A DNA stretch of 64,000 nucleotides from an uncultured Alphaproteobacteria bacterium (GTDB lineage: Bacteria > Pseudomonadota > Alphaproteobacteria > Rhodobacterales > Rhodobacteraceae): the NCBI GenBank assembly GCA_963822985.1, contig CAWGJU010000018.1, positions 48,394 to 112,393 of the forward strand, given 5' to 3'. This document shows positions 1 through 64,000 of this stretch, in pieces; position 1 is the first letter of the stretch, and the number at the start of each line of letters is the position of its first letter. The position numbers and the translations under genes are program-made. Under the pieces are notes generated by a model. It searched no databases and was not told the origin of the DNA. It saw nothing but the letters and a program-made list of their open reading frames with translations.

Positions 1-691
1 CCGAGACGTTGATGCGCACGCCCTGCCGGCCGTCGAGATGGCCGATCGCGGCGGCGATGCGGCTGATATAGGCACCGAGCGGAACCTCGTCGTTGGCGGC
101 GGTGGAGACGCCGCCCGTGCTCAGTTCCTGATAGAGGAGTTGCAGCGCTTCGACCCGGCGGGCCAGCATGTCGTAGTCGGCCGCGGCGCCCTCGGCGCCG
201 GCCTGCAGACGGATCAGGCCGACGACCATCGCCAGGTGGTTCTTCACCCTGTGCTGGATCTCGGCCAACTGCGCCAGCAGGTCGGCCTGGACATCCTCGT
301 TGGTCAGGTCACGCTGGATGCCGAGAAAGAGGACGACCGTTCCAGCATCGTCCCGGATCGGCGCAATCGATACCTGGTTGCGGAAGGGCGTGCCGTCGGC
401 GCGATAGTTCGTGATTTCGACCGAGACGTCCTCGCCCGCCGCAATGGCGCGGCGCATCTCGTCGACGCGGTCGGGCTCGGTCGCCTCGCCCTGCAGAAAG
501 CGGCAGTTCCGGCCGATGACGTCGCGCCGGCGATAACCGCTCAGTTCCTCGAAGGCCTCGTTGGCGAAGATCAGCGGATTGTCGTCCAGGCCGGGGTTGC
601 TGAGCGTCAGCGCCAGAGGCAGCCGCGCCAGCGCGGCGGTCGGCACGCTGTCGGGCTCGATCGCCTCGGCCAGTTGCTTCACGTCTTTCAT
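1..691 (-). CDS. LOV-domain (blue-light) sensor histidine kinase, HisKA_2/HWE-type; 3' part runs off the left edge
   Basis: Missing from the ORF track because there is no in-window stop. Manual minus-strand translation from ATG at 691 (RBS GGGAGG): MKDVKQLAEAIEPD...DNPLIFANEAFEELSGYRRRDVIGRNCRFLQGEATEP...ITNYRADGTPFRNQVSIAPIRD...FLGIQRD...AEIQHRVKNHLAMV. GRNCRFLQG is the LOV signature; HRVKN is the HisKA_2-type phospho-His box. Confidence 0.9.
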   Translation of the reverse strand, partial: MKDVKQLAEAIEPDSVPTAALARLPLALTLSNPGLDDNPLIFANEAFEELSGYRRRDVIGRNCRFLQGEATEPDRVDEMRRAIAAGEDVSVEITNYRADGTPFRNQVSIAPIRDDAGTVVLFLGIQRDLTNEDVQADLLAQLAEIQHRVKNHLAMVVGLIRLQAGAEGAAADYDMLARRVEALQLLYQELSTGGVSTAANDEVPLGAYISRIAAAIGHLDGRQGVRINVS

Positions 692-743
692 GTCGGCGTC
701 CTCCCGCCCCGCCCCGCTGTCCCGGCCAGAGTCGCCCGAGAGC

Positions 744-1442
744 CTATGCGGCCTTGCGCACCGTGCGCTGCTCGATGCGCTTCTCGTGGCTCCCCTTGAT
801 GACACGCTGCACGAAGATGCCGGGCGTGTGGATCAGGTCGGGATCGAGCTCTCCCGTCGGCACCAGCTCCTCGACCTCGGCCACCGTGACCTTGCCGCAG
901 CTGGCGCAGAGCGGGTTGAAGTTCCGCGCGGTCTTTCGGTAAATCAAATTGCCTTGGTGGTCGCCCTTCCAGGCCTTGACGATGCCGAGATCGGCGCGGA
1001 TCGCCCGCTCGAGGATATAGGTCTCGCCGTCGAACTCCTTGTGCTCCTTGCCCTCGGCGATCTGCGTGCCGACGCCCGTCTTGGTGTAGAAGCCCGGGAT
1101 GCCGGCGCCGCCGGCGCGCATCCGCTCGGCCAGCGTGCCCTGCGGGTTGAACTCGATCTCGAGCTCGCCCGAGAGGTATTGCTGCATGAAGAGGTCGTTC
1201 TCGCCGACATAGGACGAGATCATCTTGCGCACCTGCTTGCCCTGCAGCAGCAGGCCGAGGCCGAAATCGTCGACGCCGGCGTTGTTCGAGGCGACGGTCA
1301 GCTCCTTGACGCCGGAATCGCGGATCGCGGCGATGAAGTTCTCGGGGATCCCGCAAAGGCCGAAACCGCCGGCGGCGATGCTCATCCCGTCGAAAAGCAA
1401 TCCATCCAGCGCCTCGGCCGCCGTGGCGTAGACCTTTTCCAT
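744..1442 (-). CDS. scoA: 3-oxoacid CoA-transferase subunit A (ScoA/PcaI family)
   Basis: MEKVYATAAEAL...AAGGFGLCGIPENFI...SNNAGVDDFGLG...NPQGTLAERMRAGGAGIPGFYT; start placed at ATG 1442 with a GGAGG RBS. Confidence 0.9.
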   Translation of the reverse strand: MEKVYATAAEALDGLLFDGMSIAAGGFGLCGIPENFIAAIRDSGVKELTVASNNAGVDDFGLGLLLQGKQVRKMISSYVGENDLFMQQYLSGELEIEFNPQGTLAERMRAGGAGIPGFYTKTGVGTQIAEGKEHKEFDGETYILERAIRADLGIVKAWKGDHQGNLIYRKTARNFNPLCASCGKVTVAEVEELVPTGELDPDLIHTPGIFVQRVIKGSHEKRIEQRTVRKAA

Positions 1443-1483
1443 AGAACCCCCTCCGCCGACGGAAACGTGCAACGCAAGGGCGC

Positions 1484-1512
1484 TTTATAGGTCTGGCCGC
1501 GCCGCCCCTCAA
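1484..1512 (-). promoter_or_regulatory. Putative sigma70 promoter for scoA
   Basis: Minus strand reads TTGAGG-N17-TATAAA, about 40 nt upstream of the ATG. Confidence 0.5.
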
Positions 1513-1964: not shown

Positions 1965-2651
1965 CTAGCTTTGGAGACGGGCGAGCAGCGCCGCGAGGCG
2001 GGCGTTGACCTCCGAAGGGCGTTCAAGCGTCGCGATATGGCCGCAGCCGGGGATCTCGGTCAGCTCGGCCGCCGGCAGCGCCGCAGCGATCGGGGCGTGC
2101 AGCTTCGGCGGGCAAACGCGGTCCTCGGCGCCGACGAGGATCTCGACCGGGCCGGCGAAGCCCGCGATCAGGGGCAGCATGTCGCGGCGCGTGTCGAGGG
2201 AGCGCGCCTGTGCGCGGGCGACGGGTTCGGGTGTTCTCAGCATGGCGGCCCGCGTCTCCGGGCCGAGGCGCGCCGCAACCTGCGGATCGTGCAGGTAGAA
2301 GCGGCCGACGAAGGTTTCGACGTATTCGCCCAGGCTGCGGTCGAGCAGCTCGTTGCGCCATTCGATCTCGCGCTCGCGGGCGGATGTCGGGTCGGTGTCC
2401 ATCAGGCAGGCGCCGAGCAGGCGATCGGGTGCGCGCGCCATCACCTCCATCGCGACCATGCCGCCCATCGAGAGCCCGGCGACGACGAACCGCTCGGGCG
2501 CCTGGCCGAGCAGCCGGTCGGCCATGGCGCCGACCGTGTCGTCCGCCGTCGTGTCGGCGAGCCTGACGTCGTGCTCCGCCAGCCCCGCGAATTGCGGCGC
2601 GTAGAGCGCGGCATCGCAGAGATGCCCCGGCACAAGCACGATCGCGACCAT
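1965..2651 (-). CDS. Alpha/beta hydrolase
   Basis: VLVPGHLCD, nucleophile elbow GLSMGG, VGAEDRVCP and CGHIATLE catalytic Asp/His segments. Confidence 0.85.
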   Translation of the reverse strand: MVAIVLVPGHLCDAALYAPQFAGLAEHDVRLADTTADDTVGAMADRLLGQAPERFVVAGLSMGGMVAMEVMARAPDRLLGACLMDTDPTSAREREIEWRNELLDRSLGEYVETFVGRFYLHDPQVAARLGPETRAAMLRTPEPVARAQARSLDTRRDMLPLIAGFAGPVEILVGAEDRVCPPKLHAPIAAALPAAELTEIPGCGHIATLERPSEVNARLAALLARLQS

Positions 2652-2761
2652 CTCTCCCCCATCTCTCTTCCTGCCTGCATTGCCGCGCCCAGAATGGCAG
2701 GGCGGGCGGCCGACGCGCAACCCGCGTGCCGGCGGCGTGCCGGCGGGCTATATGCCGTGCC

Positions 2762-54951: not shown

Positions 54952-57063
54952 CTACCGGTGCAGAGCGTGCCTGCGACTGAGCCAGGCGGGGAGGAGCGGC
55001 GTGACCTCTGACGGCTCGGCGTTGCCGTCACCGAAGGCCGCGATCAGCTTCAGAACAGCGCGATCATCCTTTCGAAGACTGCGGCCTGGCCAAGCCGAGC
55101 GATCCGCTTCAGTTCCCGCGATGAACCCGCGCGCCCACTGCCGAAGGTCTTCGGCAGCGCTGGATTTGAGGTGCCGTCCAATGGCCGCGGCATCGGCCAG
55201 GTCACGGTTGGCCGTGTTGTACCGGAGCATGACGAGGTCGAGGAAACGCTGGAGCCGGGCGTAATCGGGAAAGCCGTGTGCACGGTCCAAAAGCCCGCCA
55301 ACCCAGGCTGACGGCGGCGACATCCGCGGGGCCACCACAACGGCAGCAAGATAGCCGTCGAGCCAAGCCGGCGAGATGTCCATCGCCGCATCTCTCAGGA
55401 GCCGCCGCAACTCCCCGCGCTTCTCGGGTTCGGGGGGCTCGGACAGGTACTCCGGGCCTTCGATGCTCTCGGCATCGTCTCCGGCGAGAGGTGTCCAGGG
55501 GTCGTCCGGGCCCATGAGCGTCAGCTGATGGACCCAGCCGAGGATCGGGACCTTGCGTGCCGGCCGCCCGTCCGCCAGTGCCACACCCATGGCCGCGACC
55601 GGTTGCCATTCTTCGGAACTCGCCGCCGGCCGCGCCGCCAGAACGGCTGCTGCGCGCATCGTCAGCATCGCCCACCACTCGCGGCGCCGGTCGAGATAGC
55701 GCCACAGCGCGATCTCACGGCTTCTCGGCGTGATGTTGTTCGTCAGGATCTCCCGGGTCTCGGGACCGTCCTCGAACCAGCTCGTCAGCAGCCGGTGCCG
55801 GGCTGGCCAGTCTGCACCGGCATTCACCATCCGGCCGAAATGCTGCTTGGACAGGCCCGTGAGGGCCCCCTCGGGATCGATCTCACCGAGCCAGTCCTGC
55901 ACGCTCATCGTCCTCGGCACGAGCCGATCGATGCCACAGATCTCGACGACGTCGAGCAGGCCGTGCGCCGGCGGCTCGTCGCGCGCGGCATTCTCCGCGA
56001 GGGCCGCCGCGAGCGCCGTCGAGAGGAACCCCGGCTCCACCTCGAACGCGTCCATCTCACGCTCGACGAAGCCGAGGCGCTGCTTCTGCTCCGTCGCGCT
56101 CGAGCACGGTACGAGATAGGCGTCGCGCACCCCATGGCCTTGCTTGAGGAGCACCATCACGATGCAGCGCCTTCCGCCCTGGCGCGCCGCGACCGCGAAG
56201 CTCTGCCCGCCGGACCCGTCCGGAATGCTCGCCACCGTCCGGTGCAGTGTCCACGATCCGGCAATCGGTTCGCCGGCCAGGTCCTGCCGGAGCACTGCCT
56301 TGAGCGTGCTGTCGATCGTCGCCCGGGCTGCGTCCGCCGGCATCCAGTTGCGAAGCCTGGTCAGACGCGACCGGATCGTGGCATCGAGCCGCCCCTGTCG
56401 GGCGTGGCCGAGAAACGCGTCTGCCGCCACGCTTCGCAGGTCGGGCGACTTGTCCAGCAACCAGTAGCAGCCGAGCCGGGCAAAAGCCGGGTCGAAGCGT
56501 TCAAGGATGGCCCGAACCAGCGTCTCCTGGATCTCGGCATCATAGGTCGCGAGCATCTCGCCCAAGGCGGCATGGAAGGCGTACGGGTCGCCGCGGGCGT
56601 CACCGCGCATCCTGCTGATGAGGTCGTCCAGATCGGGCACAGCAGCCCCCGTGCTCGCCGCGATCGAGGCCTCTCTGACGGAATTCTTGAGTCGCTCCGG
56701 CGGCCTCAAACTCGCGCGAACATAGCACCTCCCGAGGAGGGCGAGCCCAGGCCCGGCCTCGCCAGCCCGGCGGCCGATCGATCTCTCGGCCGCATCGAGA
56801 ACTGCAGGCCCCTTGCTGCCCCGGCCTTCGGCATCGATGCGCGCGCCGTCGAGCAGTGCCTCCAGGAGGAGAAGCTCCGCGGGCACGTCCTCCGCGTCTT
56901 CCGCGGCAATGATGCGCCGGGCCAATTCGGCTGCGGCCTCCGGATGCTGCAGGAGCGCGCGAGAACTCGCAGCCACGGCATCCCAGCGTTCATCGTCATC
57001 CGATGCGCTGGAAACCTCTTCAAGGCAGCGTCGCAAGACGAGATCGGGCAGAGAAACCTCCAC
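54952..57063 (-). CDS. Large hypothetical protein with C-terminal UPF0149/YecA domain
   Basis: 703 aa uninterrupted ORF; WLDGYLAAVVVAPRMSPPSAWV...WARGFIAG is UPF0149-like. Confidence 0.7.
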   Translation of the reverse strand: MEVSLPDLVLRRCLEEVSSASDDDERWDAVAASSRALLQHPEAAAELARRIIAAEDAEDVPAELLLLEALLDGARIDAEGRGSKGPAVLDAAERSIGRRAGEAGPGLALLGRCYVRASLRPPERLKNSVREASIAASTGAAVPDLDDLISRMRGDARGDPYAFHAALGEMLATYDAEIQETLVRAILERFDPAFARLGCYWLLDKSPDLRSVAADAFLGHARQGRLDATIRSRLTRLRNWMPADAARATIDSTLKAVLRQDLAGEPIAGSWTLHRTVASIPDGSGGQSFAVAARQGGRRCIVMVLLKQGHGVRDAYLVPCSSATEQKQRLGFVEREMDAFEVEPGFLSTALAAALAENAARDEPPAHGLLDVVEICGIDRLVPRTMSVQDWLGEIDPEGALTGLSKQHFGRMVNAGADWPARHRLLTSWFEDGPETREILTNNITPRSREIALWRYLDRRREWWAMLTMRAAAVLAARPAASSEEWQPVAAMGVALADGRPARKVPILGWVHQLTLMGPDDPWTPLAGDDAESIEGPEYLSEPPEPEKRGELRRLLRDAAMDISPAWLDGYLAAVVVAPRMSPPSAWVGGLLDRAHGFPDYARLQRFLDLVMLRYNTANRDLADAAAIGRHLKSSAAEDLRQWARGFIAGTEADRSAWPGRSLRKDDRAVLKLIAAFGDGNAEPSEVTPLLPAWLSRRHALHR

Positions 57064-57367
57064 ATCGAGGTAGTGGACGGGCTTTGCCCCGCCGTCCGGC
57101 TGCAGGCATCATGTCACTGCACCTGCCATAGGGGACAGCCCGTGGCGTTGTCCATGCCGAGGCAAGCTCACGCAGCGTACCGATTAGCCTCCATGACCCC
57201 AGCGTGATCTATGACAAGTTCGGGTTACGGATCGCCGGCGGTCGTATGGCAGTTGCAGAGGGAACAGCGGGCGCTCGTCCTTGGCCGGGCCGACGCGAAG
57301 GTTGCGCCAAATTCGGTCATAGCTGCCGCCGTGCATGTCGGACGGCACCACGACCGTGCTCAAGTGG

Positions 57368-58063
57368 TTATGGAGACCCGGCGTTGCGGCTTTCGCCATC
57401 TCGCGTCGACCGGCGAGGCGGCGCTTTGCCTCCGGCCGGCGTTCGCGGCGGGTGCGGCCGATAGACCGGCAGCCGCCACCCGAAGTGCAGCGAGCCCGCC
57501 CTCAGGGCGAAGGTGAGCGCGGAGCCGGCCAGCAGTGAGATGAACTGCCCCGACGGAAACAGCGCGAAGAGGATGACGCCGAGGAGTGCGCCGGCGAGGC
57601 AGGCGCTGACATAGAGCTCGCCCTGTCGCAGCACCATCGGGATCTCGTTGGCGACGACGTCGCGCATCATGCCGCCGAAGGTGCCGGTCGCGATGCCCGT
57701 CACGAGCACGATCGGCCAGGACACACCGGCTTCCCGCGCGATCGTCACGCCCGCCGCCATGGCGACCGACAGAGCCACTGCATCGAGCCAAAGAATGGCC
57801 CGATGGCGGGATTCAAGCCGGTGCGCGGTGAAGAAAACCAGCACCGCCGCGACGCAGGCCACGCCGAGATAATGCGGGCTTGCGATCCAGAACACCGGGT
57901 CGCGCCCGAGCACCAGGTCCCGGAGCGTGCCGCCGCCGATGCCGGTGAGGCAGGCCAGGAACAGGAACCCGACGATGTCGAGCCGGGCGCGGGAGGCGAC
58001 GAGGCCGCCCGTCAGCGCGAACACGAAGACGGCGGCAAGATCGAGCGCTGCGGCGGGCGACAT
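57368..58063 (-). CDS. Trimeric intracellular cation channel (TRIC/UPF0126) protein
   Basis: VFALTG, TGIGGGTLRDL, TGTFGGMMRDV, ELYVSAC. Confidence 0.9.
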   Translation of the reverse strand: MSPAAALDLAAVFVFALTGGLVASRARLDIVGFLFLACLTGIGGGTLRDLVLGRDPVFWIASPHYLGVACVAAVLVFFTAHRLESRHRAILWLDAVALSVAMAAGVTIAREAGVSWPIVLVTGIATGTFGGMMRDVVANEIPMVLRQGELYVSACLAGALLGVILFALFPSGQFISLLAGSALTFALRAGSLHFGWRLPVYRPHPPRTPAGGKAPPRRSTRDGESRNAGSP

Positions 58064-58156
58064 GGTTGTCCCTCGGCTCCGGTTCCGGGCGAGAGTAGAC
58101 GCGGGAGCCGGCGCGAGAACAAGATGGGCGGGCCAGGTGATCTGCCCGCCATCCGA

Positions 58157-59011
58157 TCACGCCAGCTTCGCTTTCGGCGCGGCGACCGGACCGAGCCCGA
58201 GCAGGCGCCGCGCCTCGGCCGGGCTCGCAACCCTGCGGCCGTGCACCTCGCAGAGCTCCGCCGCGAGCCGCACCAGCGCCGCGTTCGACGGCGCAAGCGT
58301 GCTGCGGTCGAGCCGGATGTTGTCCTCGAGCCCGGTCCGTACATGGCCGCCGAGCTCGAGCGACCAGCGGGCGACCTCCATCTGGTGCCGCCCGATGCCG
58401 GCCGCGGTGAAGGTGGCGCCTGGGAGAAGCTCCTTCAGCATCGCGACCTCGAAGGCAAGGATGTCGCGCCGCGCCGGCAGGGCATGCTTCACGCCCATCA
58501 CGAATTGGACATGCGGCTTCGGCGCGACCAGCCCTTCCGCGACAAGGTCGGCGGCATTGATCAGCATCGCGAGGTCGAAGACCTCGATCTCCGGCTTCAC
58601 CCCCAGCGCGCGCATCCGCCCGGCGAGGCCGCGCACGAAATCGGGCGGGTTCTCGTAGACGATGGTCGGGAAGTTGCAGGAGCCGGTGGCGAGCGAGGCC
58701 ATGTCGGGCCTGAGGTGCAGCATCGCCCCGCGCTGGTCGAGGGCGCGGCCGCGCCCGCCGGTCGAGAACTCCACGATGATGTCCGGGCAGACGCGGCGGA
58801 TGCCGTCCTGGAAGGCGGCGAACCTGTCCGGGTCGCTCGAGCTCGTCTCGTCGGCATTGCGGACATGGACGTGGACGAGCGACGCGCCCGCCTCGCAGGC
58901 CGCATGGGTGCTCTCGATCTGCTCGGCGATCGAGATCGGCACGGCCGGGTTGTCCTTCTTGCGGGGCACCGAGCCGGTGATGGCGACGGCGATGATGGCG
59001 GGTTCGCGCAT
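58157..59011 (-). CDS. Beta-keto acid cleavage enzyme (BKACE/Kce, DUF849)
   Basis: AITGS, NPAVP, VHVHVR (Zn HxH), STGG, PDMASL, PEIEVFD, GGHVRTGLEDN. Confidence 0.92.
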   Translation of the reverse strand: MREPAIIAVAITGSVPRKKDNPAVPISIAEQIESTHAACEAGASLVHVHVRNADETSSSDPDRFAAFQDGIRRVCPDIIVEFSTGGRGRALDQRGAMLHLRPDMASLATGSCNFPTIVYENPPDFVRGLAGRMRALGVKPEIEVFDLAMLINAADLVAEGLVAPKPHVQFVMGVKHALPARRDILAFEVAMLKELLPGATFTAAGIGRHQMEVARWSLELGGHVRTGLEDNIRLDRSTLAPSNAALVRLAAELCEVHGRRVASPAEARRLLGLGPVAAPKAKLA

Positions 59012-59091
59012 GGGGGCCTCTCAGGGAGTATGGCAAGGCGGGAGGGGTGCGACCTGCGAGCAAGCCGCCCGCAGGTGCATGGGATGACGGG

Positions 59092-60453
59092 TCACTCGGC
59101 TGCGATCGCAACGGCCGCCGGGGTGGCATTCGCCGCCACCGCGCGGGCCAGCCAGGCCTTGCCGAGCATCGCCATTGCGGCGAGGAAAGCGGGCAGCGCC
59201 GCCGCCGCGAAGACCGTGGCGAGATCCCAGCCGAAGGACATGAGCACGCCGCCCACCATCGAGCCGAGCACGGAGCCGGTGCGGCCGACGGCGTTCGCCC
59301 AGCTGACGCCCGTCGCGCGGCTCTCGGTCGGGTAGTAGCCGGCGGCGAGCGCGTTCACGCCGACCTGCGCCCCGGCGACGCCGAAGCCCGCGCCGAAGAT
59401 CGCGAGGACCAGCAGCCAGGGTGTCGCGACCGCCGAGCCGAGCAGAATGACGAAGCCGCCCGCCACGAGATAGGCGCCGGCCAGCACGAGGTGCGGCTCG
59501 AAGCGGTCCATCAGCCGGCCGATCAGCACCGCGCCGACCGTGCCGCCGGCGGCGAGCGTCGCACCCATCAGCGAGGCGTGCTCCATGCTGAAGCCGGCCG
59601 TGGTGATGAGAAGCGGCAGCCAGGAGGCGAGCAGGTAGAAGACGAGCAGGCTCATGAAGAAGGTCGTCCAGATCAGCACCGTGCCGAGGCCGAGACCGTT
59701 CCGGAAGAGCTGGGCGACGGGCGAGCCCGGCACCCGTGCCGGCACGGCGAAGCGTGCATCGCCCAGGTCAGCCGCGGGGACCATGCGCTGCAGCACCGCC
59801 CTGATCCGGGCCGGCTCGGTCCCCCGCGCGGCGAGGTAGCGCGGCGACTCCGGCAGGAGCGCCAGCAGCACCGGCGCGAGCAGCACGGGCAGGACGCCGC
59901 CGAGGACCAGGAGACCCTGCCAGCCCCAGGCCGCGACGATCCCCGAGGCGGCAAGCCCCGCCGAGGCCGAGCCGATGGTGAAGCCGCAGAACATCAGCGT
60001 CACGAGCGAGGAGCGGCGCCTCGACGGGCAGAGCTCGGCCGTCAGCGTGATCGCCGCCGGCATGGCCCCGCCGAGCCCGAGCCCGGTCAGGAAGCGCAGC
60101 GCGATCAGGGTCTGCGCATCGGGTGCGAAGGCCGAGGCCAGGGAGGCGAGACCGAAGAACAGGGTCGTGGCGACGAGCACGGGCTTGCGCCCGATCCGGT
60201 CGGCGAGGGGCCCGAAGACGAGCGCGCCGGCCATCAGCCCGAAGAGCCCCGCCGCAAAGAGCGGCGCGAGATCGGCCGGGGTGACGCCCCATTCCGCCTT
60301 GAGCGCCGGCGCGATGAATCCGATCGCGGCGGTGTCGAAGCCGTCGATCGCGACGACGAGAAAGCAGAGCGCGATGACGCTCTTCTGGAAGCGCGACAGG
60401 GGATGGGCGTCGACCACCTCCTGGACGTCGAGAACTCGGCCGGGCGCAGTCAT
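59092..60453 (-). CDS. MFS aromatic acid:H+ symporter (BenK/PcaK family)
   Basis: IDGFDTAAIG, GPLADRIGRK, RFLTGLGLGG, LPES, YYPTESRATG. Confidence 0.9.
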   Translation of the reverse strand: MTAPGRVLDVQEVVDAHPLSRFQKSVIALCFLVVAIDGFDTAAIGFIAPALKAEWGVTPADLAPLFAAGLFGLMAGALVFGPLADRIGRKPVLVATTLFFGLASLASAFAPDAQTLIALRFLTGLGLGGAMPAAITLTAELCPSRRRSSLVTLMFCGFTIGSASAGLAASGIVAAWGWQGLLVLGGVLPVLLAPVLLALLPESPRYLAARGTEPARIRAVLQRMVPAADLGDARFAVPARVPGSPVAQLFRNGLGLGTVLIWTTFFMSLLVFYLLASWLPLLITTAGFSMEHASLMGATLAAGGTVGAVLIGRLMDRFEPHLVLAGAYLVAGGFVILLGSAVATPWLLVLAIFGAGFGVAGAQVGVNALAAGYYPTESRATGVSWANAVGRTGSVLGSMVGGVLMSFGWDLATVFAAAALPAFLAAMAMLGKAWLARAVAANATPAAVAIAAE

Positions 60454-60492
60454 TTGGGTTTCCCTCCCCTGTGTTTGGATTTCTGCTTGGCG

Positions 60493-60768
60493 TCAGATCG
60501 CGGATGGGTGCCGCGCGAGCGGCGTCACCTCGATTTCCATGAACGGGAAGAGCGGCAGGGAGCTGAGGATGCCGTGCAGCTCGTCATGGTCGGCCACGTC
60601 GAAGATCGAGAAGTTCGAGTAATGGCCGGCGATGCGCCAAAGGTGCCGCCACTTGCCCTCGCGCTGGAGTGCCTGGGCACGCTCCTTCTCGGCGGCCTTG
60701 ATCTCCTCGAAGCGGTCCGGGTCGATGTCGTGCGGCGGGCACACGTCCATGCGGACATGGTAGAGCAT
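60493..60768 (-). CDS. catC: Muconolactone delta-isomerase
   Basis: MLYHVRMDV...KWRHLWRIAG.YSNFSIFDV...LPLFPFMEIEVTPLARHPSAI. Confidence 0.95.
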   Translation of the reverse strand: MLYHVRMDVCPPHDIDPDRFEEIKAAEKERAQALQREGKWRHLWRIAGHYSNFSIFDVADHDELHGILSSLPLFPFMEIEVTPLARHPSAI

Positions 60769-60805
60769 GGGGGTTCTCCTTTCCGTCGTGTTCGGCGGGC
60801 TTGGT

Positions 60806-61972
60806 TCAGGCGCGCGCGAAGCGCTTCATCTTGTCGGGGTCGAGGGTGACGCCGAGGCCGGGGCCGGTCGGCAGGTGGATCTCGAAATCGGCGATGCGCA
60901 ACGGCTTCTCGGCGAGGTCCTCGACGAGGATGTGCGGACCGAAGTGCTCGCATCCCCAGTCGAGGCGACGGAGCGCCGCGAAGACCTGGAGATGCGCCGC
61001 CGCCCCGATGGAGCTCTCGAGGAGGCAGCCGCCATAGAGCGAGAGCCCGGCCGCCTCGGCCACGGAGGCGACCCTGCGCGTGCCGAGCAGGCCCCCATGC
61101 TTGACGATCTTGAGCGACAGCGTATCCGCCGCCCCGGCCGCGGCGACCCGGGCCATGTCATGAGCGTCAAAGACGCATTCGTCGGCCATGATCGGCACCG
61201 CCGAACGGGCGCGCACGCGCGCCAGGCCCTCGACGTTCCAGGCCGGCAGCGGCTGCTCGATCAGTGCCACGCCCATCTCGGCGAGCGCCGGCATGGCACG
61301 GACGGCCGTCGCCTCGTCCCAGGCCTGGTTGGCGTCGACGATCAGCGTGGCCCGGCCCTCCAGCGCCGCCGCCAGCCGGGCGAGCCGGCCGAGGTCGTCG
61401 GCCAAGGGCTGCGCGCCGATCTTCACCTTGAAGCGGTCGTGCAGGCGCTGGCCGAGCCTCGCCTCGGCCTCGTCGATCTCCTGGGCCGGGTCGCCCGAGG
61501 CGAGCGTCCACCAGACCGGCATCCGTTCGCGCACGATGCCGTTGAGGAGCTGCACCGCCGGCAACCCGAGCGCCTTGCCGACCGCGTCGAAGAGCGCGCT
61601 CTCGATGGCACCCTTGGCGGCGTTGTTGCGCCTGGCCGCCGCGTCCATCAGCGCGCCAGCGGCCTCGAGGCGGCGCGCATCGGCGCCGAGCACGGCCGGG
61701 GCGAGATGCGCGTCAATGACCGCCTTGATGCCCTCGACGCTTTCCTCCGACCAGCGCGGGCCGCCGAGCGTCGCCGCCTCGCCGACCCCCGTCACGCCGC
61801 CGGCGAGCCGGACCTCGACGATCACGTAGGACTGCGCCGAGACCGAGAGCTGGCTGAGCTTGTGCCGGCGCACGGTCGGCACGTCGACGATCGTGGCGCG
61901 TATTTCCGCGATGCTGAAGTCGGAGGTAAGATCGCCTGGGAGGTTGATCGGGCGGTATTCCATCGGGTTCAC
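60806..61972 (-). CDS. catB: Muconate cycloisomerase
   Basis: VDVPTVRRHKL, GVGEA, WTLASG, FKVKIG, VDANQAW, EQP, MADE, LKIVK, CEHFGP. Confidence 0.93.
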   Translation of the reverse strand: MNPMEYRPINLPGDLTSDFSIAEIRATIVDVPTVRRHKLSQLSVSAQSYVIVEVRLAGGVTGVGEAATLGGPRWSEESVEGIKAVIDAHLAPAVLGADARRLEAAGALMDAAARRNNAAKGAIESALFDAVGKALGLPAVQLLNGIVRERMPVWWTLASGDPAQEIDEAEARLGQRLHDRFKVKIGAQPLADDLGRLARLAAALEGRATLIVDANQAWDEATAVRAMPALAEMGVALIEQPLPAWNVEGLARVRARSAVPIMADECVFDAHDMARVAAAGAADTLSLKIVKHGGLLGTRRVASVAEAAGLSLYGGCLLESSIGAAAHLQVFAALRRLDWGCEHFGPHILVEDLAEKPLRIADFEIHLPTGPGLGVTLDPDKMKRFARA

Positions 61973-62067
61973 TCGAACATGAGGGGGCCGGGCCCGCAGC
62001 GGACGGCCGGCGGGATGCGGAGGATCGGCTGGAGAGGAAGCGGCCGGCGGGGCCGGCCGCAGAGCCG

Positions 62068-62991
62068 TCAGTCGGCCATCGCATGGGCGCGCTCGACCAC
62101 CGTCTTCGGCGCGTCGGCTGTCTCGCGATGCAGGACGAAGTCGAAGCGGATCGCCGTGTAGGCGTCGTTCAGCCCGTTCGCCCGGATGCGCTCGGCATCC
62201 GTGACCTTCTCGACCGGCGGGATCAGCTCGTCACGGGTCGCGAAGGCGAAGTCGTCGTGCAGGTACTCGTCGCCGTCGATGTTGATCTGCGTCGTCAGGT
62301 GCCGATGGCCGTCAGCCGAGACGAAGAAGTGGATATGCGCCGGCCGGTGGCCATGCCTGCCGAGCCCGTCGAGCAGCTCCTGCGTCACGCCGTCGGGCGG
62401 GCAGGCATAGCCGGAGGGCAGTATCGAGCGGAACCTGTACCGCCCTTGCGCGTCCGTCTCGATCCGGCGGCGGAGATTGTACTTCGCCTGGGACGGATCG
62501 AAGAACGAGTACCCGCCCTTGGTGTTGGCGTGCCAGACGTCGACGATGGCGCCGGCTACCGGCTTGCCGCCCTTGTCGCGGACCTCGCCTTCCATGATCA
62601 GGACCTCGCCCTGCTCGGTGCCGTCGTCGAGGCGGCCGACGCCCTTCTCGAGCGGCGCCCCGGCGACATAGAGCGGCCCCTCGATCGTGCGCGGCGTGCC
62701 GCCCTCGATGCCGGCCCGACGCTCGGCCTCGTCGAGCATGATGTCGAGGAAGGTCTCGACGCCAAGGCCCGGCACCAGCAGCCCCGCCTCGTTCGCCTGG
62801 CCGAGCCTGGTGATGTAGTCGACGCCGGCCCAGAACTCGTCCGGCTGCACGTCGAGGTCCTCGATGGCGCGGAACATGTCCTCGGCGGCGCGGCGGACGA
62901 CCGCCTTCACCCGCAGATTGCCGGCGGTCGAGTCGAGGCCCGCCACGCGGTCGAGAAGCTGCTGCACCTGGTCATTGTCGACGAGAGACAT
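62068..62991 (-). CDS. catA: Catechol 1,2-dioxygenase
   Basis: GTPRTIEGPLY, DVWHAN, GGYS, PSGYACP, RPAHIHFF, LTTQIN, DDFAFATR. Confidence 0.95.
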   Translation of the reverse strand: MSLVDNDQVQQLLDRVAGLDSTAGNLRVKAVVRRAAEDMFRAIEDLDVQPDEFWAGVDYITRLGQANEAGLLVPGLGVETFLDIMLDEAERRAGIEGGTPRTIEGPLYVAGAPLEKGVGRLDDGTEQGEVLIMEGEVRDKGGKPVAGAIVDVWHANTKGGYSFFDPSQAKYNLRRRIETDAQGRYRFRSILPSGYACPPDGVTQELLDGLGRHGHRPAHIHFFVSADGHRHLTTQINIDGDEYLHDDFAFATRDELIPPVEKVTDAERIRANGLNDAYTAIRFDFVLHRETADAPKTVVERAHAMAD

Positions 62992-63047
62992 GGGGTATTT
63001 CCTCCGGAATGGGCGCGTCCTGCGCCGGGTTTCGATCGGGTTGAGCC

Positions 63048-63845
63048 TCAGCCGAGGTCGCCGCCGGACACCGGCAGGGTGACGCCGGTGACGTAGGAGG
63101 CCTCGTGGGATGCAAGGAACAGGATGGGTGCCGCCTGCTCCTCGACCGTGCCGTAGCGGCCGAGAAGGCTCGACGCCGTTGTCTGGGCCACCACCGCCTC
63201 GGTCCAGGCGTGGTCCTCCGCGTCGGGCAGAGCGGCGTTGCGCGGGATGCGTCGCGGCGGCGCTTGCGTTCCGCCGGGCGCTGTGGCGACGACGCGGATG
63301 CCGCGCGGGGCCGCCTCCCAGGCCAGCGAGGCGGTCAGGGCGTTCACGCCGCCCTTTGCCGCCGAATAGGGGATGCGGTGGATGCCGCGCGTCGCGATCG
63401 ACGAGACGTTGACGATGACGCCGCCCTGGCTCATCGCCGGCAGCGCCGCGCGGCAGCACCAGAGCGTCGGCATCAGCGAGCGGCGGATCTCGGCCTCGAT
63501 CTCGGCCGGTTCGAACCGCTCGAACGGCTTCATCCAGATCGCGCCGCCGACATTGTTGATCAGGATGTCGAGCCGGCCATGCGCCTCCAGCGCGGCCGCG
63601 ACCGCGGCCGCGGCCCCTTGCCAGGTCTCGAGATCAGCGGTGACGGCGATGCCGTCCGCCGCCTCGGCGACCTCGGCGACGAACTCGGAGCGGTCCACCG
63701 CGACCAGCCTACCGCCCTCGGCGGCGAGCCTGAGGGCCACCGCCCGGCCGATGCCCTGCGCGGCGCCGGTGACGATCGCCACCTTGTCAGCGAAGCGTCC
63801 GGACGTGAGCCCGGCGGCGGCGTGAATGCGGGCGGGAGCTGTCAT
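63048..63845 (-). CDS. benD: cis-dihydrodiol dehydrogenase (benzoate pathway SDR)
   Basis: VTGAAQGIG, INNVGGAIWMKPF, NVSSIATRG, YSAAKGG, PGGT, PVSGGDLG. Confidence 0.92.
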   Translation of the reverse strand: MTAPARIHAAAGLTSGRFADKVAIVTGAAQGIGRAVALRLAAEGGRLVAVDRSEFVAEVAEAADGIAVTADLETWQGAAAAVAAALEAHGRLDILINNVGGAIWMKPFERFEPAEIEAEIRRSLMPTLWCCRAALPAMSQGGVIVNVSSIATRGIHRIPYSAAKGGVNALTASLAWEAAPRGIRVVATAPGGTQAPPRRIPRNAALPDAEDHAWTEAVVAQTTASSLLGRYGTVEEQAAPILFLASHEASYVTGVTLPVSGGDLG

Positions 63846-63867
63846 CTCGGTACTCCTTGCTGCTGGG

Positions 63868-64000
63868 TCAGCTGGCGAGCTTGAGGGGCTGGGCGGCTGC
63901 GCCGCTCACGGCGAACTTCTCGGTGTGAAAGCCTGCCGGCTCGACGTCCTGGGCCCTTAGCCAGGCCCGCACGGCGTCCACCATCGCTGGCGGCCCGCAG
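63868..64000 (-). CDS. benC: 3' end of benzoate 1,2-dioxygenase reductase (partial at window edge)
   Basis: CGPPAMVDAVRAWL...FHTEKFA is the FNR-family C-terminus; lies directly upstream of benD. Confidence 0.75.
   Translation of the reverse strand, partial: CGPPAMVDAVRAWLRAQDVEPAGFHTEKFAVSGAAAQPLKLAS

Follow-up and report, generated by a model that had tools for sequence, protein, structure and literature searches.

Protocatechuate (pca) gene clusters of Methylobacterium that lack pcaIJF carry a gene of the DUF849 family, and a replacement of PcaIJ by its product has been proposed (PMC8963497, 2022). As related in PMC8963497 and PMC12379598, an earlier screen (Bastard et al. 2014, Nat Chem Biol 10:42) had covered the BKACE subgroup, and the DUF849 gene was classed as beta-ketoadipate-type. 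In the more recent of the two studies (PMC12379598, 2025), the gene is called kce, a one-step bypass is drawn, and pcaHG-kce-pcaB-pcaL from M. nodulans enables the growth of M. extorquens PA1 on protocatechuate. Here, we analyze a BKACE gene (58157-59011) that stands at the end of a benzoate/catechol (ben-cat) operon in a stretch of 64,000 nucleotides, referred to as the window (C18:48394-112393), from the draft genome of an uncultured member of the Rhodobacteraceae. The draft amounts to 5.2 Mb in 18 contigs, with 69% G+C and an estimated completeness of 92%. Positions without a prefix are those of the window, and the prefixes C and L denote contigs and individual loci, respectively.

We put at about 0.8 the probability that this gene encodes a zinc-dependent, 3-oxoadipate-specific BKACE that is the closing catabolic gene of a benABCD-catABC-benK operon and would bypass PcaIJ and PcaF. 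Gene calls were made with hmmscan against NCBIfam and Pfam, and bit scores were set against the curated cut-offs. The protein, of 284 residues, matches PF05853 over its full length (310.9 bits; residues 4-273 span all 274 profile positions), and scores 461.3 bits with the NF053568 equivalog "3-oxoadipate:acetyl-CoA acetyltransferase", for which the cut-off is 350. A preliminary description of this DNA, made from its letters, had suggested placing the protein among the BKACE subgroups, and the score assigns it to the 3-oxoadipate subgroup; with this equivalog match, the gene would receive an automatic name from current annotation pipelines. The runner-up model, that of the lysine-fermentation Kce, stays at 260 bits, below its cut-off of 382. 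The nearest solved structure is PDB 3NO5 (383 bits, ~70% identity, aligned residues 1-274), and two motifs, HVH at residues 47-49 and GLEDN at residues 227-231, line up with both 3NO5 and 3CHV. We take HxH and GLEDN, the latter with its Glu-Asp pair, to be the metal (zinc)-site contexts known from the Kce structure.

The cluster had been described as a minus-strand array of benC-benD-catA-catB-catC-MFS-BKACE-TRIC, in which MFS stands for a major facilitator superfamily transporter, and every one of these genes is present with NCBIfam or Pfam support (Table 1). The benC gene continues past the window end; when the contig is read on, benC, benB and benA are found intact. The genes of the cluster all lie on one strand with intergenic spacings of 37-95 bp, and scans of the cluster for terminators and promoters gave nothing over the shuffle expectation, with no convincing internal terminator. 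The catechol branch is complete for benABCD, catA, catB and catC, each of which scores over its equivalog or subfamily cut-off, and related operons have in the corresponding place a transporter that shares 75-78% identity with this MFS protein. Genes for a hydrolase, a CoA-transferase or a thiolase are absent from the cluster. The earlier statement that it ends without an enol-lactone hydrolase, a CoA-transferase or a thiolase is correct, and the next gene encodes an unrelated UPF0149 fusion.

The terminal position of BKACE recurs in other genomes, as seen from a comparison of gene neighbourhoods in 80 loci with BKACE relatives (69-86% identical). The order LysR, benABCD-catABC-MFS-BKACE is also present in L031, L033, L043, L044 and L052, and its hosts are Paracraurococcus ruber, Neoroseomonas eburnea, Roseomonas ponticola, Craurococcus roseus and one Beijerinckiaceae metagenome-assembled genome (MAG), the last of which has pcaD (258 bits) and scoA downstream of BKACE. 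An ABC transporter replaces the MFS gene in two Falsiroseomonas species (L034 and L040), one of them with pcaD immediately before BKACE, and catABC is followed directly by BKACE in an Acidisphaera MAG (L039). The orthologues stand beside pcaHG in 11 of the 80 loci and beside a gene for a QuiC-type dehydroshikimate dehydratase in 24, and pcaD is found near the orthologue in L034, L109 and L114. ScoA homologues with 66-69% identity adjoin BKACE in L046 (pcaB-BKACE-scoA-scoB-phaC), L052 and L085 (pcaB-BKACE-scoA). These neighbourhoods fit an enzyme that consumes 3-oxoadipate, with ScoAB and a thiolase of the polyhydroxybutyrate (PHB) cycle handling the acetoacetate. The bypass is well supported by the NF053568 match together with the operon and orthologue context. 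The one-step cleavage of beta-ketoadipate to succinyl-CoA and acetoacetate that the preliminary description had suggested gains support at the sequence level from the equivalog match, the cat-, pca- and qui-linked orthologues, and the lack of a pcaF-grade gene in the draft.

Table 1. Genes of the ben-cat-BKACE operon and of the 3-oxoacid CoA-transferase, with model scores (curated cut-offs in brackets).
Feature	Position	Strand	Model match or remark
benC 3' end, benzoate 1,2-dioxygenase reductase; last ~44 codons	63868-64000	-	NF040810 497 bits (430)
benC, full gene	C18:112261-113292	-	continues past window end
benD, benzoate diol dehydrogenase	63048-63845	-	NF040811 409 bits (380)
catA, catechol 1,2-dioxygenase, 307 residues from ATG at 62991	62068-62991	-	TIGR02439 444 bits (392)
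catB, muconate cycloisomerase	60806-61972	-	TIGR02534 415.5 bits (335)
catC, muconolactone delta-isomerase	60493-60768	-	TIGR03221 150.6 bits (130.6)
MFS transporter, aromatic acid:H+ symporter type, BenK/PcaK-like	59092-60453	-	below both cut-offs: TIGR00895 391 bits (418.55), PcaK model 433 bits (770)
BKACE, predicted 3-oxoadipate:acetyl-CoA acetyltransferase	58157-59011	-	NF053568 461 bits (350); PF05853 311 bits
UPF0126/'Gly_transporter' membrane protein, prokaryotic TRIC-like	57368-58063	-	PF03458 134 bits, two repeats
benB	just past window end		TIGR03232 268 bits (225.55)
benA	just past window end		TIGR03229 859 bits (781)
Divergent BenM-like LysR gene	just past window end		308 bits, below exception cut-off
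3-oxoacid CoA-transferase subunit A (ScoA/PcaI family)	747-1484	-	TIGR02429 254 bits (128.5)
3-oxoacid CoA-transferase subunit B (ScoB/PcaJ family)	C18:47388-48017, outside window start		TIGR02428 333 bits (243.55)

From the identities, order, scores and conserved neighbourhoods of the genes, we infer what BKACE acts on, which way the carbon flows and which enzymes cooperate with it in the following route. Benzoate would be taken up by the MFS transporter and converted to catechol by BenABC and BenD, and CatA, CatB and CatC would carry catechol to 3-oxoadipate enol-lactone. An enol-lactonase, for which no gene was found in the draft, would then provide 3-oxoadipate, and BKACE would convert 3-oxoadipate and acetyl-CoA into succinyl-CoA and acetoacetate by transfer of an acetyl unit. 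ScoA and ScoB, from the other end of the window, would turn acetoacetate and succinyl-CoA into acetoacetyl-CoA and succinate, and a PhaA-type thiolase would form two acetyl-CoA from acetoacetyl-CoA and CoA, unless acetoacetyl-CoA were directed into PHB. The net balance of the BKACE route equals that of PcaIJ and PcaF. Since ScoAB and a thiolase are still required for acetoacetate, and the genome encodes both, enzymes are swapped without any shortening of the net chemistry.

The ScoA gene is located inside the same window, ~55 kb from the operon, and had been overlooked in the preliminary description; it is the one strong ScoA/PcaI-family match in the whole draft. The genes scoA and scoB, which are normally adjacent, are split by a gene for a 379-residue LOV/PAS-HisKA_2 histidine kinase on the same strand (window 1-1484 and C18:47388-49865). 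A PcaF-grade thiolase is absent from the draft, in which five thiolase-like genes reach 213-414 bits with the pcaF model TIGR02430 (cut-off 597) and ordinary acetoacetyl-CoA thiolases are present. A genome search for pcaD, pcaIJ and pcaF, suggested earlier as a check, thus yields no pcaD- or pcaF-grade gene, but does yield one pair of the ScoAB/PcaIJ subfamily (254 and 333 bits).

The distribution of these genes was surveyed in a sample of 101 genomes from the family of the window. A gene of NF053568 grade occurs in 75 of them, often less than 3 kb from pcaD, which is itself found in 82, and catC is found in only 5. BKACE is accompanied by a pcaF/paaJ-grade gene in 45 genomes and occurs without it in 30, 16 genomes have pcaF only, and 10 have neither. 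An anticorrelation at the genome level, in which BKACE would stand in for pcaF, was rejected, as pcaF/paaJ-grade genes are present in 45 of 75 BKACE-positive and 16 of 26 BKACE-negative genomes. Since TIGR02430 also picks up PaaJ, this co-occurrence test is uninformative.

Several points weigh against the bypass. The ScoAB pair falls in the same subfamily models as PcaIJ, TIGR02429 and TIGR02428, which are joint pcaIJ/scoAB models that do not separate Sco from Pca, and a generic thiolase, of which the five thiolase-like genes offer examples, could replace PcaF. The equal co-occurrence of pcaF/paaJ-grade genes with and without BKACE provides no signal of replacement at the genome level, and the encoded pathway is incomplete, as there is no PcaD/CatD-grade enol-lactonase in the 92%-complete draft. 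The classical route might still run, with the ScoA/ScoB-family transferase acting as PcaIJ and a general thiolase as the 3-oxoadipyl-CoA thiolase, and BKACE would be redundant or would serve another beta-keto acid; the joint presence of BKACE and pcaF-grade genes in 45/101 family genomes agrees with such a view. The genes of the transferase, however, stand 55 kb away from the operon, have the LOV kinase gene between them and show no linkage to cat or pca genes here, and no thiolase reaches the pcaF cut-off. Moreover, BKACE passes a 3-oxoadipate-specific equivalog model, and its terminal position in the operon is conserved in other genomes. We consider a persisting classical route unlikely and favour the bypass by BKACE.

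The enol-lactone hydrolase had been expected to come from elsewhere. None is encoded in the cluster, as stated, but none was found in the rest of the draft either, where the best match to TIGR02427 attains 73 bits against a cut-off of 255.85, and a search of the draft with the PcaD proteins of relatives returned no orthologue, just weak alpha/beta-hydrolase matches (73 bits or less). The draft lacks a CatD/PcaD-grade enol-lactonase despite holding pcaHG, pcaB, pcaC-like genes, catABC and three BKACE copies; pcaHG is grouped with quiC and a shikimate dehydrogenase gene at C6:691796-695947, and the two pcaC-like genes of the genome score slightly under the cut-off. The missing enol-lactonase is most simply explained by an assembly gap in the 92%-complete draft. 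Alternatively, this genome and that of Neoroseomonas eburnea could truly be without a CatD/PcaD-type enol-lactonase and use a non-orthologous hydrolase instead, so that ben-cat-BKACE would be a mobile 'short' catechol pathway running on the ScoAB and PHB-cycle enzymes of the host and on a lactonase not described before. N. eburnea, which has the same operon, gave no PcaD match at E<=1e-30, and no enol-lactonase candidate was found among the genes that come after BKACE in this species or in R. ponticola. Candidate alpha/beta hydrolases in the draft are encoded at window positions 1968-2747 (by scoA), at C17:239712-240812 (by a pcaC-like gene) and at C6:324711-325529. We regard this alternative as unlikely.

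A cluster at C17:237141-240812 (L104 5141-8812) contains a pcaC-like gene (148 bits against 155.7) and genes for a 2-hydroxyacid dehydrogenase, an enolase-superfamily dehydratase, a weakly PcaD-similar alpha/beta hydrolase, a CaiB-type CoA-transferase and a tartrate dehydrogenase. It possibly represents a separate lactone or acid-sugar pathway.

The operon appears to have been exchanged horizontally, because its proteins are close to those of the Roseomonas group (65-85% identical), in contrast to YidC, and its BKACE is distant from the copies of the family. YidC is 53-61% identical to that of family mates and 46-48% identical to that of the Roseomonas group, and the window BKACE is 52-61% identical to the copies of family mates, which resemble the copy on contig C6 at 70-76%. 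A tree of BKACE sequences joins the window protein to that of a MAG in which the gene adjoins pcaD and phaC (support 100/99), and places it outside the cat-linked clade.

The C6 copy encodes a further BKACE, of the type usual in the family (428 bits with NF053568; C6:283349-285511, L019 11349-13511), with TRAP transporter genes before it and a pcaB-like gene (345 bits against 355.75) directly after it. Its reading frame appears broken near codon 25, the first ~30 codons lying in a different frame, through either a genuine frameshift or an indel of the assembly. Another copy belongs to a decayed partial duplicate of the operon end on contig C13 (C13:13454-18560, L018 8454-13560), where the genes for UPF0126 and BKACE match those of the window at 99.7% identity, and catC with the 5' part of the MFS gene does so at 93.6%. 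The MFS gene of the duplicate is interrupted by a unique 1.56-kb insertion, with multi-copy insertion sequence (IS) elements on the far side. Within the insertion, L018 10985-11946 (C13:15985-16946) holds a gene for an AbiEii-type nucleotidyltransferase toxin (PF08843, 64 bits), preceded by an open reading frame of 94 residues without a Pfam match that could be the antitoxin.

A rival reading takes the operon for a module that was gained by horizontal transfer, is decaying in part and can no longer sustain growth on benzoate; BKACE, even if intact, would then have no current role in this organism. The interruption of the C13 copy among IS copies and the apparent frameshift of the C6 copy are in line with decay; the divergence between the operon proteins and YidC and the presence of catC in just 5/101 family genomes are in line with acquisition; and the enol-lactonase, found in 82/101 family genomes, was not found in the draft. 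Against this, the ten operon genes on C18 are intact, with scores above the curated cut-offs except for the MFS transporter, which is below its own, and pcaD may be unassembled, given that the draft is only 92% complete. We attach little probability to the decay of the module, and retain the interpretation of BKACE as a functional bypass enzyme.

The UPF0126/TRIC-like gene that follows BKACE is the final one on the minus strand ahead of a ~260-bp gap, and its product scores 114 bits with a YadS-type model, under the equivalog cut-off. As a component of the system it was rejected and dropped, since none of the 80 related loci has such a gene beside BKACE; it is probably a passenger, duplicated together with BKACE on contig C13. 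The next downstream open reading frame (54955-57108, same strand) encodes the fusion protein mentioned above, which has 718 residues with a C-terminal UPF0149 domain and ~550 N-terminal residues without assignment.

For genome annotation, these data imply that the presence of a BKACE of the NF053568 type should keep the beta-ketoadipate pathway of a cat- or pca-bearing genome from being scored as incomplete for lack of pcaIJ and pcaF. The linkage to the catechol branch extends the published cases from the protocatechuate branch, and suggests that BKACE moves with ben-cat operons between alphaproteobacterial families. In the proposed route, aromatic carbon would pass through free acetoacetate beside PHB metabolism, which may help to engineer the conversion of lignin aromatics. 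The BKACE bypass of the operon opens no new question.

The closest counterparts of the window BKACE are the members of NF053568 (label 3OXCoAcCUPNH), with which it shares the equivalog score, the BKACE fold, the metal-site motifs and the predicted reaction. It is ~70% identical to the Cupriavidus and Paraburkholderia orthologues; in most Burkholderiaceae loci, BKACE is next to quiC and pcaR genes, whereas here it is the final enzyme gene of a ben-cat operon. The lysine-fermentation Kce (3-keto-5-aminohexanoate cleavage enzyme, PDB 2Y7D-G) belongs to the same Pfam family and shares the TIM-barrel and a retro-Claisen/Claisen reaction with acetyl-CoA that gives acetoacetate, but differs in its substrate and is more distant, with only 187 bits in phmmer and a model score under the cut-off, as given above. 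PDB 3NO5 is a structural-genomics entry for DUF849 that was deposited as 'Uncharacterized protein', its function not being stated in the file. Classical PcaIJ, the 3-oxoadipate:succinyl-CoA transferase, and PcaF accomplish the same overall conversion of 3-oxoadipate to succinate/succinyl-CoA and acetyl-CoA, and occupy the same place at the end of cat and pca operons; their folds, however, are unrelated to BKACE, and their intermediate is 3-oxoadipyl-CoA, while the BKACE route would release free acetoacetate.

The Methylobacterium pcaHG-kce-pcaB-pcaL operon, a beta-ketoadipate-pathway operon without pcaIJF, encodes an enzyme of this subgroup, and an identical bypass of PcaIJ and PcaF has been proposed for it. 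By contrast, it serves the protocatechuate branch and has its own lactonase (pcaL), whereas the window operon belongs to the benzoate/catechol branch and has no lactonase in the operon or the draft. A full-text literature search for DUF849 and catechol together returned no paper. The bypass is not new, because the subgroup was screened in 2014 and the same bypass was described for Methylobacterium pca operons in 2022 and 2025; its benzoate/catechol-operon version may not have been spelled out in the literature, and represents a small extension of the published bypass.

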